From assembly GCA_964247135.1 (NCBI GenBank), contig CAXTTL010000124.1:1-14459 (forward strand): a stretch of DNA of 14,459 bases, written 5' to 3'. This DNA is from an uncultured Deinococcales bacterium. GTDB taxonomy: Bacteria > Deinococcota > Deinococci > Deinococcales > JAAFIG01. Numbering within the stretch: the first letter of the stretch is position 1; each line of letters starts with the position of its first letter. Below the pieces are notes generated by a model. The model saw nothing but the letters and a program-made list of their open reading frames with translations. It did no database searches and was not told the DNA's origin. Below, one piece after another: positions 5,521-12,892 of the stretch. The translations under genes and the position numbers were made by a program.

Positions 5521-6690
5521 GTGAAGCTTTTTGTCATCGGCGACGTTACCGTTGACCACCTGTACTTCCTCGAGCGCATCCCACGCGCCGGCGAGGAAGC
5601 CATGCCCATTCGCAGTACGCTGATCCCAGGCGGCGCAGGTGGCAGCCTTGCCTATTACGCAGCCCAACTTGGACATCAGGTTACCCTCGGCGCTCGGGTC
5701 GGCAATGACCCATTCCAAGAGGTTGCTTTAAGCAAATTAAAAGCGGTCGGCGTGGATTTGAGCGCCATTCAAAAAGACGAGAATACCCTGACCAGTACCA
5801 TCACGATCATGGTCACACCCGATGCCGAACGCAGCATGATCAGCGCGGGCGGAGCCAACCGCAACCTCGATGCCGCCGAACTGCCCAAAAAAGCGATTGA
5901 AGAGAGCGACGCCATGATCCTGAGCGCCTACGCCCTGGTCAGCGGAATGCAGCGCGAATATACCGTCAAAGCCATGCAGTTGGCGCAAAAACAAAAAATC
6001 CCAGTCTTCATCGACCTTGGCACAGGCGCGGTCAACACCGCTGGCACCAAGCTGCTCGAGATCGTCAAAAGCGCCGATTATCTTTTGATGAACCAACTCG
6101 AGTTGGCACGCATCACCGGGCACACCAGCATTTCCGACGCGCTCGAGGGACTGCACGCCCAGGGGGTTCACAATGTGGTGGTCAAAGTCGGTTCGATGGG
6201 CGCAATCGTCTGGACGCCCGAAGAATCGGAATTGATTGAAGGTTACGAAATTGACGGGGTTGCCGACAGCACCGGAGCGGGTGACGGGTTTACCGCCGCC
6301 TTCGCCCATGCGATCTTGCTGGGCTACGACATGAAACGCGCCGCCCAGTATGCCAACGTGGTCGGTGCGCTGGTTGCCACGCATGTTGGCGCTCAGGGTG
6401 CCAAGATCAGCCACGAAAACATTCTCGAGCGGGTCGAAGAACGCTACGGCAAACAACCTGCAATTGTCCAGAAACCTGTAGACAGTCCAAAACAAGCAAA
6501 AACCTTGAGCAAATCAGTTCAGTCCGAGCCAATCAACCCCGAACCAGTCAAACCTCAATCCATGCCCGAACCACTCTTGATTGAACCTCCAGCGGTCAGC
6601 AAACCAGAAGTGGTCAAAGAAGCCCCTGCCAAAGAAGCTCCTGTCAAAGAAACACCGGTCAAGAAAACCCGCGTTAAAGCAAAAGTATAA
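5521..6690 (+). CDS. PfkB/ribokinase-family carbohydrate kinase with a Pro/Lys/Glu-rich C-terminal tail, 389 aa
   Basis: VIGDVTVDH, PGGAGG, VGNDPF, LLMNQLE, VVVKVGSMGA and anion hole DSTGAGDGF; GTG start with AAGGAG SD. Confidence 0.93.
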   Translation: MKLFVIGDVTVDHLYFLERIPRAGEEAMPIRSTLIPGGAGGSLAYYAAQLGHQVTLGARVGNDPFQEVALSKLKAVGVDLSAIQKDENTLTSTITIMVTPDAERSMISAGGANRNLDAAELPKKAIEESDAMILSAYALVSGMQREYTVKAMQLAQKQKIPVFIDLGTGAVNTAGTKLLEIVKSADYLLMNQLELARITGHTSISDALEGLHAQGVHNVVVKVGSMGAIVWTPEESELIEGYEIDGVADSTGAGDGFTAAFAHAILLGYDMKRAAQYANVVGALVATHVGAQGAKISHENILERVEERYGKQPAIVQKPVDSPKQAKTLSKSVQSEPINPEPVKPQSMPEPLLIEPPAVSKPEVVKEAPAKEAPVKETPVKKTRVKAKV

Positions 6691-6698
6691 ACGACAAA

Positions 6699-6738
6699 AA
6701 AATCTCGAGCCTGGGTTATTTTCCAGGCTCGAGATTTT
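6699..6738. terminator. Bidirectional terminator with CTCGAG arms between pfkB and the rhodopsin operon
   Basis: AAAATCTCGAGCCTGG-N8-CCAGGCTCGAGATTTT, perfect 16-bp stem with U-tails on both strands. Confidence 0.9.
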
Positions 6739-6757: not shown

Positions 6758-6985
6758 TTAGGTTTCAGATGTTTTGGTCTGGATGGTAGCGAGCGTGTAG
6801 AGGTAGCCCACAACCAGCAGCATCTCGAGCGCATACACGGCGCGTAAGGTCAGCAGGCGTGGACTTGCGCCAAAGCCGCCAACAGCATCCACAGCCAATG
6901 TACCGAGCACCAGCGCCATCAAAATCCAACCAGCCGTTTCTTGTCGTTTCAGAATAAACCGCTTGATCTGCGTCAATTCAATCAC
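6758..6985 (-). CDS. Small two-TM membrane protein, 75 aa, overlapping the rhodopsin stop
   Basis: GTG start overlaps the last 8 nt of the rhodopsin gene; hydrophobic segments GWILMALVLGTLAVDAVGG and AVYALEMLLVVGYLYTLATI; exactly fills the gap to the terminator. Confidence 0.65.
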   Translation of the reverse strand: MIELTQIKRFILKRQETAGWILMALVLGTLAVDAVGGFGASPRLLTLRAVYALEMLLVVGYLYTLATIQTKTSET

Positions 6986-7814
6986 CCGCCAATGCTGGGG
7001 TCAGTGCTTTGTCGGCGGCGGTTTTCTCGAGCGCAATGAAATAAATCAAAACACCGAAGCCCGCCTTGGCGATGATGTCCGCCAGGCTGTAACCAACTTG
7101 AAGTCCGACCACACCACTGGCGCTCAGACCACCAAACACGGCGGGCAAGAGGTATGCGAGCGGGTAAAAACCCCACGAGAAAATCAACAACAGTCGCAAG
7201 TTGCGAACCAAGACTTTGACATACTCGGGTTGACGATCCAAAGAGTTGCTCAGTTCGCTCCAGAGGACAAACAAAATGTAGACGAAGGGAATGGTGCTGA
7301 TTGTTCCCCAGACCAGACGCGTGGTGTTGTCGCTCGAGACTTCGCCTGGGTATCCGGTGGCGATCATCACCACGGCGGCAATCACCAAACGACCAATCAA
7401 ACCAGCCGAGATGTTACGTGCCAATGCCAGCACCGAGACTGCTTCGACAAGGAGCAGCGGCACGGTCAAAATCCAATCGGCGTAACGGTAGGCATCGTTG
7501 AACGGAACGCCGGTGGGGTTGTAAGCGCCGTTCACAAGGGCATACGATTCGTTCCAGGAGTTAAAAATTCGCACGTAATGGTAGCAGGCGACCGCCACCA
7601 CCAGCGCCGTGACCAGCATGGCGGGTCGGTATTTTTCGGCAAGTGACTGACGACCCAGCACAAAGAAGATAAAAGATGCACCCATTGTGGCGATGGTGAT
7701 TGAAAAAAGTTGGTAAACCAATCCAAACTGCCCAGAAGTCAATTGAATTCCTGCTGCGAATGAACTTGATCCAAACAAAACAAATACTGTCAATAACATC
7801 AGCCACTTTTTCAT
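6978..7814 (-). CDS. Microbial rhodopsin, xanthorhodopsin/Gloeobacter-rhodopsin clade, DTE outward proton pump, 278 aa with N-terminal signal peptide
   Basis: FNDAYRYADWILTVPLLLVE (DTE), helix B His in YHYVRIF, TGYPGE, WGTISTIPF, WGFYPLAY, retinal lysine in DIIAKAGFG; ATG at 7814 with GGAGGA SD at 7820-7825. Confidence 0.96.
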   Translation of the reverse strand: MKKWLMLLTVFVLFGSSSFAAGIQLTSGQFGLVYQLFSITIATMGASFIFFVLGRQSLAEKYRPAMLVTALVVAVACYHYVRIFNSWNESYALVNGAYNPTGVPFNDAYRYADWILTVPLLLVEAVSVLALARNISAGLIGRLVIAAVVMIATGYPGEVSSDNTTRLVWGTISTIPFVYILFVLWSELSNSLDRQPEYVKVLVRNLRLLLIFSWGFYPLAYLLPAVFGGLSASGVVGLQVGYSLADIIAKAGFGVLIYFIALEKTAADKALTPALAGD

Positions 7815-8155
7815 AATGATCCTCCGTGTCGTTACAAAAAATAGAAAGGTTTCAAGCATTGTAAAAAGGCTCGAGCAGTAAAAAATGATTTTTGCAAACA
7901 ACTTCTAAAGTTTATACAACTCAACCTTATACACGTGAAGTCTATTGCACACTCTAATTTCTGATTTTACTGCAATTGAATGGTAGCTCGAGATTCAATT
8001 CCTTGATCGAATTTGTATAACCTTTGGAAAATAGCTTTACTGCACAGCTTTTTACGGCAATGCTCGAGTTTAAGCAATCATGTTTTTTGGTTGACGAAGC
8101 CCGATTTGGCGCATCGTCGCATCGAGAATCCGGTACCAATTATTCCAAAGACTTG

Positions 8156-9364
8156 TTAATCCAGCACCGCTCGAGCCAGACGTTTGACGCCCTCCTCGAT
8201 TTGTTCCGTGCTGGGCGTGGCAAACGACAGACGCAAGTAATTGGCTTTGGGATTGCCAGGAAAAAACGGCACGCCAGGCACGTAAATCACGCCGTTGTCC
8301 ACGGCTTTTTGCACCATGCTCATCGTGTCCACGCCCGCCGCCATTTTCGCCCACAAGAACATGCCGCCATCGGGTTTGTTGAACTCGAGCGTTCCCGCCG
8401 GAAAATGCTCTTCCAATGCCGCGATCATGGCATGACCTTTGGCGCCGTAGGTGCTGCGAATTTTCGGCAGTTGCGCCTGCAAGCGTCCAGTCTCGAGGTA
8501 ACGCGCCGCGACGTGCTGGCTAAAGGTGCTGGTGTGCAAATCGGCGGCTTGTTTGGCAATGGTCACGGGTTGCACCAGCCCTTCTGGCAGAAGCATCCAA
8601 CCCAGCCGTAACCCTGGCGCGACAAATTTAGACAAGGTGGAAAAGTACGTGACCCACTCGCTCGAGCCGTCCACAAAAGCAGTCAGACCCACCAATGGCG
8701 GCAGGATTTCGCCGCTAAAACGCAACTCGCTGTACGGATCGTCCTCGATCACCAGCACCTGGTATTTAACCGCCAGCTCGAGCAATTTTTTGCGCCGCTC
8801 GAGCGAGAGTGTCGCGCCGCTCGGGTTGCCAAAGGTTGCCACGGTGTAAATAAATTTGGCTCGGCGCCCCTCGGCTTGCAGTGCCTGCAATTGCTGCTCG
8901 AGGTCGTCGGGGTTAAGACCATCGGCGTCAATTTCGATGCCGCGCAATTCGGCTTGGTACATTTCAAAGACCTGCACCGCCGCCAAATAGGCGGGGCGTT
9001 CGACCAGCACCACATCGCCAGGGTCAACCAGAATTTTGGCGATCACATCGATGGCTTGCTGCGAACCCGTGGTGACAATCAGATTGTCTGGTGACAGTCC
9101 AGATGCACCTCGAGACGCCATGATGTCGATCAGGTGGTTTTTCAGAACATCGTAACCGTCCGTTGGACCGTATTGCAGGGTCGCCTGCGGGTTTTGCTCG
9201 AAGGCATCGAGTGCCGCCTGGCGAATGCCCTCAATGTCAAACAACTCTGGGGCAGGCAAACCACCCGCGAAAGAAATGATGTCCTTGCGTACTGCCACCT
9301 TTAAAACTTCACGAACGAACGAGGGCTTGACACCGGACATCCTGCTTGCGAGTGGATAAGACAT
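8156..9364 (-). CDS. PLP-dependent class I/II aminotransferase (LysN/2-aminoadipate transaminase-like), 402 aa
   Basis: ISFAGGLPAPELF, TTGSQQAID, FGNPSG, IEDDPY, PLP lysine in STLSKFVAPGLRLGW, LRLSFA; no HTH. ATG at 9364 is 6 nt after TACAAT (9371-9376). Confidence 0.93.
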   Translation of the reverse strand: MSYPLASRMSGVKPSFVREVLKVAVRKDIISFAGGLPAPELFDIEGIRQAALDAFEQNPQATLQYGPTDGYDVLKNHLIDIMASRGASGLSPDNLIVTTGSQQAIDVIAKILVDPGDVVLVERPAYLAAVQVFEMYQAELRGIEIDADGLNPDDLEQQLQALQAEGRRAKFIYTVATFGNPSGATLSLERRKKLLELAVKYQVLVIEDDPYSELRFSGEILPPLVGLTAFVDGSSEWVTYFSTLSKFVAPGLRLGWMLLPEGLVQPVTIAKQAADLHTSTFSQHVAARYLETGRLQAQLPKIRSTYGAKGHAMIAALEEHFPAGTLEFNKPDGGMFLWAKMAAGVDTMSMVQKAVDNGVIYVPGVPFFPGNPKANYLRLSFATPSTEQIEEGVKRLARAVLD

Positions 9365-9573
9365 GCGTTGATTGTACGATGTTTGAAAGCGATTGGCGAA
9401 ACCCAAATCTGTTGTTGCTTTGAAAACTCGAGCATTCTGAAACCCATCAAGTCAGTGCCTCAGCTCTGGGATGTTCGGGTCCTCAATGGTATTTTTTCTC
9501 GGGGCTTGTGGCGATACTCTTGCTGTTTCGCGCCTGACCAAGTTTCTCGAGCGTAACGCGCTAAAATGCTGGC

Positions 9574-10488: not shown

Positions 10489-12774
10489 TCAGGCTCGAGT
10501 TGACTTCAGGTTTTTGGGTGACTTGGTTTTGCGCTTGACCTTGTCGCGGTACATCAATGCGTCGGCGTGTTTGTACAAAGCGTCGGCATCCGCGCCGTCT
10601 CGAGGGTAGATTGCCAAACCGACGCTGGCGCTGACCGTCAAGGTCTCTTTGCCAGCATCCAGACCAATTTTGAGGTTTTGGGTGATGTCTTGCCTCAAGT
10701 TTTCGCTCGGGACGCTGTCGGTTAAATCGGGCAGAATCAAACAAAATTCGTCGCCGCCAAGCCGCGCCACGGTGTCCGAAGCCCGCACAAAACTTTGCAG
10801 TTGAACGCCAATGTCGCGCAGCAGCCGGTCGCCGACCGAATGCCCCAAGCCATCATTGACGGCTTTGAAACCGTTTAAATCGATAAACAACACCCCCACC
10901 AAACTGCCGTTGCGATCCGCCCTGGCAATCGCTTGTTGCAAACGGTCGTGGTACAAAACACGGTTGGGCAAACCCGTCAAAGCATCGTGAAGCGCTTGAT
11001 ACTCGAGTTTTTGAATCAGTGAATGGCGCTCGATGGCAATCGCTGCCAGATCAGCCGCCGCTTTTTGCTGGGTTCGCAAATCCAAACCCCAGTGTTCGTT
11101 GCGGGTGTAACTGGTGAGCGTTCCCAAAATCAGACCGCTGCTGGTCATGATCGGCAGCGCGGCACAATGCTTGTACCCAGCCTGAATCAGCGTCGCGCGG
11201 TACTCGAGCGACCAACGGTCATCGGTGCCAAGGTTTTCAATGTATTGCGCCTCGCCGGTGCGCACCGCCACGCTGCACGGATCACCGCCCGCAGCGTCAA
11301 GGCACTCCAGCAAATCATCGGTCACATCGCGGGTCGCCACGTAACTCAAATGCCCCTCCTCGAGCAAACTGATCTGGGCGCCCAAACCAGGAAATTGTTC
11401 GGTCAGCATTTCCAGATTCATCTCGAGCAATGTGGCAATTTTTACACCCCGCGCAATCCCTTCGAGCACGCGGTTGCGACCGCGCTCGAGAATTTGGGCG
11501 CGTTTACGATCTGTGATGTCCACGATCAAACCCCGCACCAACCGAGGGCGGTTGGGTTCGATAAAGCCAACCGCGCGGTCTTGAACCCAACGCACCTCCC
11601 CGTCAGGTCTGATGATTCGGTACTCGCCTTCGACCACGGTCAGTTGTTCCGCCGCTTTCATGAAAGCACCGACCACCAATTTACGATCCTCGGGATGAAT
11701 CATGCCCATCCAAAAACGGGTCGAACCCAGCATTTGCTCCGATGCCACACCCAGCATGGCTTGGCTTTGAGGACTGACAAAGGTAAACTGGGCGACATCT
11801 TGGGAGTACAACTCGGCTTCCCAAACAACCCCTGAAACATTCTCGACCAAGTCGCGGTAACGGGCGCGTGACTTGTTGAGATCGCGTTCGGCATTCTTGG
11901 CGTCGGTGATGTCACGTTCAATTAATATTGTGCCACCGGACCAAATCGGAGCCAGCCTCGCCTCGAGGTTGCGTTCACCCGTCGGATACATCAGGCTGTA
12001 CTCGAGATCACCGACCTTGCCGCGTTCTTGCACGCGCTTTAATGCTTGTTCGATCAAGCTCACCACCGATTCTGGGTAAACATCACGAAGGTGTTTATCG
12101 ACCATCCAAGACCCGTCCGCCCCAGGCACACGAACGTCCTGAATTTGACCTCGGGCGTCAAGCCTGTACACCGTGTCGGGCAGCGCATCAAGGATGGCTT
12201 TGGCGCCCGCCTCGCTCAAGGTCAGGCGCTCTTCGATTTGCTTGCCGCGCCTCAGTTCGGTGCTGAGTTGCGCAATCTCACGGGTTTTTGCCATGAACGG
12301 CGCGGCGAGGTTGGCGATCATTTCGACAAACGCAATCTCTTCGGGATCAAAGCTTCTTGCCTCGAAGAAATCCAAAGCAAACGAGCCGAGCATCGTCCCG
12401 TGCGAAACCACAGGCACAAGCAAGGTGGCAATCACACCAAATGGCTTAAAAATCTCTTGAATGTTTTGTGGAAGTTGCCCTGTATCAACAATCGCAATTG
12501 GTTTGAGGTCACGCATCAATTGTCGTCCGACATCATCGATGGCAATTCGTCTGCCCACATTGGAAACCCCACCAGAATTGAATTCGGCAACAATCAAAAG
12601 CTCCTTGTGGTCACTCGAGAGTTGCGCGAAATTGGATTGCGGAATGCCAAGTGCCAGCGCCAGCCGTTTACAAACCACCGTTAAAAATTCTTTCGGACTG
12701 AGGGTCAACGCCGAGGTCACGGTTTTTAAAACGTCCAATTGACGCTCGAGGTTGAGTGGTGTGTTGTTGTTCAT
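10489..12774 (-). CDS. Diguanylate cyclase, GAF-PAS-PAS/PAC-GAF-GGDEF, ~761 aa
   Basis: HDALTGLPNR, FIDLNGFKAVNDGLGHSVGD, I-site RASD, RLGGDEF; PAS motifs IHPEDR and YRIIRPDGEVRWV; no EAL domain. Start at ATG 12774 is preferred but uncertain. Confidence 0.93.
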   Translation of the reverse strand: MNNNTPLNLERQLDVLKTVTSALTLSPKEFLTVVCKRLALALGIPQSNFAQLSSDHKELLIVAEFNSGGVSNVGRRIAIDDVGRQLMRDLKPIAIVDTGQLPQNIQEIFKPFGVIATLLVPVVSHGTMLGSFALDFFEARSFDPEEIAFVEMIANLAAPFMAKTREIAQLSTELRRGKQIEERLTLSEAGAKAILDALPDTVYRLDARGQIQDVRVPGADGSWMVDKHLRDVYPESVVSLIEQALKRVQERGKVGDLEYSLMYPTGERNLEARLAPIWSGGTILIERDITDAKNAERDLNKSRARYRDLVENVSGVVWEAELYSQDVAQFTFVSPQSQAMLGVASEQMLGSTRFWMGMIHPEDRKLVVGAFMKAAEQLTVVEGEYRIIRPDGEVRWVQDRAVGFIEPNRPRLVRGLIVDITDRKRAQILERGRNRVLEGIARGVKIATLLEMNLEMLTEQFPGLGAQISLLEEGHLSYVATRDVTDDLLECLDAAGGDPCSVAVRTGEAQYIENLGTDDRWSLEYRATLIQAGYKHCAALPIMTSSGLILGTLTSYTRNEHWGLDLRTQQKAAADLAAIAIERHSLIQKLEYQALHDALTGLPNRVLYHDRLQQAIARADRNGSLVGVLFIDLNGFKAVNDGLGHSVGDRLLRDIGVQLQSFVRASDTVARLGGDEFCLILPDLTDSVPSENLRQDITQNLKIGLDAGKETLTVSASVGLAIYPRDGADADALYKHADALMYRDKVKRKTKSPKNLKSTRA

Positions 12775-12892
12775 GGTTTGAAAGTTTGTGGCATCAAAAC
12801 GAATCAAACGCCCGAGCGGGCGGGTTCAAAAGTGCAAGCAGGTTGGTATCCGAATTCAACATAGATTCTAGCGCAATCAACGCGGCTCGAGC

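Follow-up and report, generated by a model that had tools for sequence, protein, structure and literature searches.

The window analysed here, a stretch of 14,459 nucleotides (nt) on contig CAXTTL010000124.1 of an uncultured Deinococcales bacterium (assembly GCA_964247135.1), carries on its minus strand a xanthorhodopsin-type rhodopsin gene and, directly behind it, a small open reading frame (ORF) for a predicted two-helix membrane protein. This small gene is the subject of the present analysis, and its product is probably a partner, not described before, of a pump that is commonly regarded as acting by itself. The rhodopsin gene (6978-7814, stop included) starts with an ATG at 7814 and encodes 278 amino acids (aa), and the small ORF (6758-6985) runs from a GTG at 6985-6983 to a TAA at 6760-6758, with 75 codons and an intact frame. 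The GTG lies within GGGTGATTGA, in which the TGA at 6980-6978 is the rhodopsin stop, the last codons of the rhodopsin being GGT GAT TGA; the overlap with the rhodopsin 3′-end described in the initial annotation is thus present in the sequence. An intrinsic terminator hairpin of 16 pairs followed by a T tail (6699-6738, minus strand) begins 19 nt past the TAA, and its energy of -28.6 kcal/mol (z -8.3) is equalled by none of 200 shuffles, in agreement with the shared terminator and two-gene unit that had been proposed. Because this terminator, which faces a convergent pfkB-family kinase gene (5521-6690, plus strand), and an aminotransferase gene upstream of the rhodopsin (8156-9406) flank the pair, the transcription unit consists of the rhodopsin and the small ORF. 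Upstream of the rhodopsin, a GGAGG ribosome-binding site read from the sequence (7821-7825, minus strand) stands 6 nt before the ATG, and a weak sigma-70-like motif, TTTACA-16-TATTTT (7838-7865, minus strand), is a promoter candidate only, the two matches counted being no excess over the shuffle mean of 1.6.

The upstream gene can be assigned to the proton pumps of the xanthorhodopsin type with an Asp-Thr-Glu (DTE) motif, because its product matches PF01036 (expectation value (E) 1.7e-43), has solved xanthorhodopsins, and not proteorhodopsins or sodium or chloride pumps, as its nearest relatives and carries the characteristic residues. The nearest solved structures are psXR (9wfa, 8e-91) and Gloeobacter rhodopsin (6nwd, 4e-89), followed by xanthorhodopsin (3ddl, 3e-79) and Kin4B8 (7ytb, 2e-75), and chloride and sodium pumps match at 1e-31 or weaker. 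The DTE residues are D113, T117 and E124 in helix C, with H79 as the helix B His that pairs with the acceptor Asp; the Schiff-base lysine of helix G, K250, is invariant across 80 rhodopsin sequences, and so is G170 in helix E, which aligns with residue 178 of Gloeobacter rhodopsin and is presumably the carotenoid-antenna Gly of xanthorhodopsins. In the structure-search alignment, H79, D113 and N106 correspond to His87, Asp121 and Asn114 of Gloeobacter rhodopsin. The N-terminus of the pump resembles a signal peptide.

For the small gene itself, a TTG at 6976-6974, which gives a protein of 72 aa (6758-6976, minus strand), is a likelier start than the GTG at 6985, because it follows a Shine-Dalgarno-like GGGTGA, the ATG codons of homologues lie at about the same place and the codons between GTG and TTG are free to change. 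The putative Shine-Dalgarno element (6982-6987, minus strand) stands 5 nt upstream of the TTG and is built from the last Gly-Asp codons of the rhodopsin, and other genera have AGGTGA or AGGAGA at this site, likewise from the final codons of the pump. All five genomes of the window's genus have the TTG 4 nt past the first base of the rhodopsin stop and keep the GTG as well, and in the other genera of the family an ATG is found at +2 to +5 from that base in 9 of 11 loci, the offset being +15 in one of the remaining two and +46 in the other. In one locus of the genus (L005), the codons between GTG and TTG are altered from Ile-Glu to Thr-Lys as a result of changes that in the rhodopsin frame are synonymous (GAT to GAC) or exchange one stop for another (TGA to TAA). 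In the protein collection, the gene is present only as a 53-aa product from an internal ATG (P0066; 6758-6919, minus strand); this start was rejected, since the residues upstream of it, which include a basic N-terminal segment, are conserved as protein.

The small ORF is a real gene, far beyond a chance ORF. In a six-frame search of 61 related genomes, the window's family, with 19 genomes including the window's own, gave matches at E 5.4e-6 or below in 16, and matches in four other families all had E of at least 0.009. The frame is open in all 16 family loci, length differences are whole codons, and this holds while amino acid identity to the window's protein falls to 30-38%, the rhodopsins remaining 66-73% identical. 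The ratio of non-synonymous to synonymous substitution rates (dN/dS), a measure that the initial annotation had suggested, ranges pairwise from 0.15 to 0.44 in the window's genus and from 0.03 to 0.27 among those pairs of a second genus for which dS could be estimated, and for the rhodopsin it is 0.01-0.10. The small protein is therefore under purifying selection, weaker than that on the pump, and its dN is 3-5 times faster than that of the rhodopsin. It might be argued that the conservation reflects a 3′ untranslated or terminator region rather than a gene, given that the ORF is short, matches no Pfam family and was annotated by the gene caller merely in its 53-aa version; such an explanation is hardly credible when every locus examined keeps the frame open down to 30-38% identity with whole-codon length differences, dN/dS stays well under 1, and four invariant residues and the two-helix pattern are retained.

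An AlphaFold model of the monomer (predicted local distance difference test (pLDDT) score 65) gives a plain helical hairpin with helices at residues 4-35 and 44-73, so that the two-helix membrane protein of the initial annotation stands as a prediction. Both termini would be cytoplasmic and the GGFGASPR loop would face outward, because the N-terminus is basic, with four Lys/Arg residues, and the positive-inside rule applies. Among 24 diverse members, D33, R48, Y51 and Y61 (window numbering) are invariant. The acidic residues that had been noted in each helix, Asp in LAVDAVG and Glu in YALEMLL, are both present in the window; the Asp is invariant, whereas the Glu is limited to the window's genus and to L010, P0006 and P0008, so that an argument from an acidic residue in each helix holds for the Asp and fails for the Glu. 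As had also been noted, there is no Blh-type PHGxxD motif, and indeed the protein contains no His at all. Pfam and NCBIfam yielded no family for the window's protein, and when the 24 members were compared with Pfam, no family was matched by more than three of them (best E 0.0045). A profile search of the PDB returned designed helical repeats only (E of at least 0.039), the best ESM Atlas score (0.86) was below the lead threshold of 0.9, with unnamed clusters, and no RNA holder was found among 10 runs (best share of words 0.20). Derivation from a duplicated helix pair of the rhodopsin or from a fragment of Blh was rejected on the hhalign probabilities of the small protein against the rhodopsin alignment and against Deinococcus Blh, 0.25% in each case. 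The family is new and unnamed, small and of narrow distribution.

The palindrome CTCGAG, which makes up both arms of the terminator (for example 6704-6709 and 6728-6733) and encodes the Leu-Glu of YALEMLL in 4 of the 5 genomes of the genus, occurs 84 times in the 14,459 bases of the window, and dinucleotide-preserving shuffles have a mean of 2.85 and a maximum of 10. Other copies lie at 6824-6829 and 7026-7031. Its density is about 4.5 per kb in loci of the window's whole family and 0.05 per kb in Deinococcus loci, and it looks like a highly iterated palindrome.

The small gene is closely tied to one group of rhodopsins. A profile built from 16 sequences was searched against 364 genomes of the phylum (Deinococcota) and gave 29 matches with E of 5.5e-11 or below, in 16 genomes of the window's family, 12 of the 111 genomes of genus g7, whose matches bear the names of Deinococcus species, and one of genus g27. 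Three weak matches (E 0.005-0.008; G352, G294 and G183), which cover 22-57 of the 71 profile positions within frames of 165-371 aa, were discounted, since chance alone should yield roughly this number in a search of 364 genomes. PF01036 was found in 109 of the 364 genomes, which include all 29 with the small gene. Neither gene is present in two genomes of this family whose completeness is 79% and 57%, and in one further genome of the family the rhodopsin lies at a contig end. In all 16 family loci the small gene stands immediately behind the rhodopsin on the same strand, its start being -5 to +5 nt from the rhodopsin stop in 14 loci, +15 in one and +46 in one; the two genes are coupled stop to start. 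In larger collections, the profile found 14 matches among 1.84 billion representative proteins, all 45-82 aa long, and 62 among 5.8 billion clusters, all unnamed or called ‘hypothetical protein’.

Synteny with rhodopsins, which the initial annotation had proposed to examine together with homologues, was followed further with 60 additional rhodopsin loci from the phylum and 80 from 185,579 species genomes, obtained with the rhodopsin clade as query. This gave 149 distinct rhodopsin 3′-ends, 142 of them with at least 300 nt downstream. Where the rhodopsin is at least 65.7% identical to the window's, the small gene is directly downstream in 27 of 27 loci (E of 1.2e-21 or below), whereas it is found in none of the 115 loci whose rhodopsin is 65.4% identical or less (best E 0.81). 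These 115 comprise 58 from Cyanobacteria, Bdellovibrionota, Myxococcota, Chloroflexota and others; further rhodopsin clades, from Deinococcus, Thermaceae and a third family, are among the 115 as well. The cut-off between 65.7% and 65.4% was chosen after the data had been seen, and phylogeny is a fairer way to put the result. A maximum-likelihood tree of 80 rhodopsins unites the 24 that bear the small gene and one that is cut by a contig end in a single clade with a Shimodaira-Hasegawa-like approximate likelihood-ratio support (SH-aLRT) of 100 and a stem length of 0.46; the tree comes from a quick search with a midpoint root, and 3 of 83 rows were left out, one with a stop in the chosen range and two with long upstream extensions. 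The small gene is thus inherited only together with one xanthorhodopsin clade. Since the Deinococcus rhodopsins nest among those of the uncultured Deinococcales family in this tree, and since one clade carries the gene, the rhodopsin and the small gene have travelled as a unit, including between families.

Twelve Deinococcus genomes carry the pair. In 7 of them the gene for Blh (PF15461) lies on the same strand about 500 nt past the small gene, in 2 it is elsewhere, and in 3 it was not found. In L046 (416-3102), for example, the rhodopsin, a small gene of 84 aa and blh follow one another on one strand, and in other Deinococcus rhodopsin clades blh adjoins the opsin gene with no small gene between. 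Where blh is present beside the pair, the small gene is embedded in an opsin-blh operon. In the window's own family, an opsin is found in 17 of 19 genomes; Blh was detected in just one of the 19, as fragments (G006), and a carotenoid oxygenase of the RPE65 type (PF03055) in none of the 19, a one-contig genome of 5.1 Mb included. The retinal of this family may be taken up from outside or synthesised by some other enzyme.

A complex of the small protein with the pump was modelled from rhodopsin residues 20-278 (80-row alignment) and the small protein (24-row alignment). In three runs, the interaction prediction score from aligned errors (ipSAE) was 0.76, 0.78 and 0.76, and the best of three controls reached 0.00; the mark used for this score is reached by 58 of 80 solved complexes and by 2 of 110 mismatched pairs, which is a rough guide here because custom alignments were used. 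The pLDDT of the partner is at least 76 and the runs share at least 91% of their contacts. A lateral complex within the membrane on helices B, C and D of the rhodopsin is predicted, with contacts at residues 60-78 (helix B, with H79), 104-130 (helix C, with D113, T117 and E124) and 135-148 (where helix D begins). The small protein follows rhodopsin residues 67 to 78 with its own residues 23 to 30, and rhodopsin residues 116 to 123 with its residues 51 to 59. This orientation is the one expected from two independent topologies, that given for the small protein by the positive-inside rule and that known for rhodopsins, and R48, Y51 and Y61 are among the confident predicted contacts. At rhodopsin position 115, which touches Y51 in the model, members of the partner-bearing clade have Ile or Val, and 95% of the other rhodopsins have Leu. 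Among positions that vary in partner-less rhodopsins, those at the predicted interface show the stronger conservation within the partner-bearing clade (entropy 0.49 vs. 0.72; permutation p 0.045, which is marginal and uncorrected for phylogeny).

According to one study, pentamers of the xanthorhodopsin (XR) type are held together by helices A, B and C, His87 and Asn114 of Gloeobacter rhodopsin face the neighbouring protomer, and His87, Asp121 and Asn114 are pentamer-interface and pH-sensitive residues (PMC6677831). As H79 and N106 correspond to His87 and Asn114, the predicted site would overlap one side of the pentamer interface, and either the hairpin bridges or replaces a contact between protomers, or the model has placed a hydrophobic hairpin on a generally sticky face. 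The carotenoid antenna of xanthorhodopsins is bound near helices E and F, around a conserved Gly, and because the predicted contact with helices B, C and D lies away from this site, the model lends no support to a role in carotenoid handling.

Among known systems, the closest analogue is the haloarchaeal Bap, described in 2007 as a predicted two-pass membrane protein of 50-70 aa (Sharma et al., PMC1885257). In that paper, Bap is found only in the context of rhodopsin genes, it is often linked to and co-transferred with the bacteriorhodopsin gene, and its function is given as unknown, with a role in insertion or assembly proposed. The window's protein is likewise small (72-75 aa) with two predicted membrane helices, and its gene occurs only in rhodopsin context and is co-transferred with the pump gene. 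In contrast to Bap, which is archaeal, accompanies bacteriorhodopsin and usually has the AAA ATPase Bac beside it, the present gene accompanies a bacterial xanthorhodopsin, has no Bac-like neighbour and has its start coupled to the stop of the pump gene. No sequence link to Bap emerged from the profile searches, whose 14 and 62 matches bear just Deinococcus or Deinococcales names where they are named; the protein may thus work like Bap and is not filed as a member of the Bap family. The initial annotation had stated that no such partner was known for xanthorhodopsins, and indeed no small partner of a bacterial xanthorhodopsin was found described in the literature (Supplementary Fig. S2 of PMC12779958, on gene neighbours, being outside the scope), a statement to be qualified by the existence of Bap as a close analogue for bacteriorhodopsin.

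Other comparisons are more distant. The transducers HtrI and HtrII resemble the window's protein in that two membrane helices bind a microbial rhodopsin laterally, which is a prediction here, and in that the gene adjoins the opsin gene. They carry HAMP and methyl-accepting domains and serve sensory rhodopsins, however, whereas the window's protein has 72-75 aa, ends 9-12 residues past its second helix and accompanies a DTE proton pump. Htr transducers bind rhodopsin helices F and G, unlike the site on helices B, C and D predicted here, and a transducer reading was rejected for want of the HAMP and methyl-accepting domains. AcrZ with AcrB, KdpF with KdpABC and CydX with CydAB exemplify inner-membrane proteins of less than 100 aa that are encoded with or near their partner and act as bound subunits or modulators; most of this class have a single helix, in contrast to the two of the window's protein. 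To our knowledge, no small-protein subunit of this kind is known for a rhodopsin, and the word ‘rhodopsin’ does not occur in the accessible part of a review of small proteins (PMC12648545). Membrane proteins of the Blh/Brp and Hli families are likewise encoded beside rhodopsin genes, and Hli genes are given as frequent neighbours of cyanobacterial xanthorhodopsin genes in PMC12779958. A Blh reading was rejected, since there is no match to PF15461 (about 270 aa with conserved His), the protein has 75 aa without His and hhalign gives 0.25%, and an Hli reading was rejected because there is no match to the chlorophyll a/b-binding family. Behind xanthorhodopsin genes of six Myxococcota-type loci in metagenome-assembled genomes, a different small ORF encodes 70-88 aa, including one or two hydrophobic segments, and has its start at -1 to +21 nt relative to the stop of the rhodopsin (L183, 2268-2516; L188, 2297-2560; L195, 2288-2512; L198, 2282-2500; L201, 2069-2311; L203, 2299-2508). 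It belongs to a different phylum and a different rhodopsin subclade, it matches no Pfam family, and no homology to the window's family was detectable (hhalign probability 0.7%).

The initial annotation had inferred for the small protein a role as rhodopsin partner for assembly, carotenoid or retinal handling, or proton relay. That it is a dedicated partner is favoured by synteny, co-inheritance with one clade, the coupling of stop and start, the placement between opsin and blh and the complex model; a catalytic role in retinal synthesis and a carotenoid-binding role are not favoured. On balance, the small protein is likely to be a subunit with a role in structure or biogenesis, one by which the pump is stabilised or organised. 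It would be a two-pass protein of 72-75 aa in the inner membrane, with N- and C-termini in the cytoplasm and a short loop outward, made from the xanthorhodopsin mRNA by re-initiation at the rhodopsin stop. Within the membrane it would bind the pump, with its helix 1 against rhodopsin helix B, its helix 2 against helix C and the beginning of helix D, and the invariant Arg48, Tyr51 and Tyr61 in contact with the rhodopsin. The hairpin may also set or bridge the pump oligomer, as the bound face belongs to the surface of helices A, B and C through which XR-type rhodopsins make their pentamer contacts.

Several observations weigh against such a subunit. Most xanthorhodopsins, including all 58 examined from other phyla, are without the small gene, and the partner-less set includes relatives of pumps that work alone in heterologous expression; therefore, the partner is not generally required for pumping. 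In one Deinococcus genome (G067), the two genes are on different contigs, the sole exception to direct adjacency. There the small gene (L039, contig C371) lies 585 nt from the contig end, a transposase-like C-terminal fragment fills that stretch, and the rhodopsin contig ends 95 nt past the rhodopsin stop; the split reflects either an insertion sequence lodged between the two or a break in the assembly. A fused form of rhodopsin plus hairpin was not found, a search at 145 aa or more being empty, which is weak evidence. Although residues 30 and 34 are in the list of confident contacts, the invariant Asp33 is outside it, and the predicted interface shows no overall excess of clade-specific substitutions (mean divergence 0.280 vs. 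0.251, p 0.27). Moreover, the complex is a matter of model confidence, its controls were unrelated natural proteins that were probably not hydrophobic hairpins, and the chosen face is a known oligomerisation face to which any membrane helix could be attracted.

The main rival to a stabilising or organising subunit is a transient helper for membrane insertion and folding or for retinal loading, which would not remain in the mature pump, as was proposed for Bap. The genomic evidence of synteny, clade and opsin-blh placement suits it equally, the 3- to 5-fold faster dN of the small protein speaks for it, and Bap was never seen in purple membrane (PMC1885257). A role with external retinal is also conceivable, considering that no blh was detectable in 18 of the 19 family genomes and an RPE65-type gene in none. 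A helper of this kind nevertheless seems unlikely, if deserving of serious attention, for the coupling to the rhodopsin stop would suggest comparable rather than catalytic amounts, the complex model is confident and consistent across runs, no cofactor-like or enzyme-like motif is present, and the gene is kept in Deinococcus genomes with an adjoining blh. That an unrelated small membrane protein, for instance a stress- or envelope-related one, merely shares the transcription unit of the rhodopsin is an improbable explanation: small hydrophobic ORFs are common and the sequence does not reveal a function, yet where sequence is available the gene never occurs without the rhodopsin clade (27 of 27 vs. 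0 of 115 loci, and a rhodopsin in 29 of 29 genomes), it was kept through a transfer between two families, in Deinococcus it separates the opsin gene from blh, and the complex model holds up against its controls.

More improbable still is a subunit that acts on the proton pathway or switches the oligomer, in which Asp33 and Arg48 would extend the proton-release side, or the hairpin would replace helix A of the neighbour and change the pentamer. Both residues are invariant in the 24 diverse sequences, and topology and model would put them close to where helices B and C end on the outer side, by H79, R82 and N106; H79, D113 and N106 match the pentamer-interface and pH-sensitive residues of Gloeobacter rhodopsin as given in PMC6677831; the placement is a matter of model geometry throughout, however, and Asp33 and Arg48 may merely pair with each other and staple the hairpin. 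A broader proposal, possible but doubtful, is that this xanthorhodopsin clade forms a heteromer with an obligate two-helix subunit, whose Asp/Arg/Tyr set at the helix B/C pentamer face would control assembly or proton release, and that such partners, as in Myxococcota and in Bap, would have arisen repeatedly and been overlooked because gene callers truncate or miss small genes.

Elsewhere in the window, the kinase domain of the pfkB-family sugar kinase (389 aa; 5521-6690, plus strand) reaches to about residue 293, and the roughly 95 aa beyond it form a tail with a high content of Pro, Lys, Glu and Val. A protein of 772 aa with the architecture GAF-PAS-PAS-GAF-GGDEF is encoded at 10489-12807 (minus strand), at a distance of 3.5 kb from the rhodopsin gene.

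A microbial rhodopsin pump is generally taken to be complete as one protein plus retinal, and work in biophysics and optogenetics, like ecology estimates, is based on pumps expressed alone. A small subunit that is conserved, inherited together with the pump and probably bound to it could change the stability, oligomeric state, spectral tuning or pumping of such a protein. Annotation hides genes of this kind, the window's own call being a 53-aa truncation. If the small protein is a bound subunit, it would provide a bacterial and genetically tractable counterpart to Bap, and because the pair occurs in cultivable Deinococcus species, namely D. marmoris, D. saxicola and D. arenicola, the question is directly testable.

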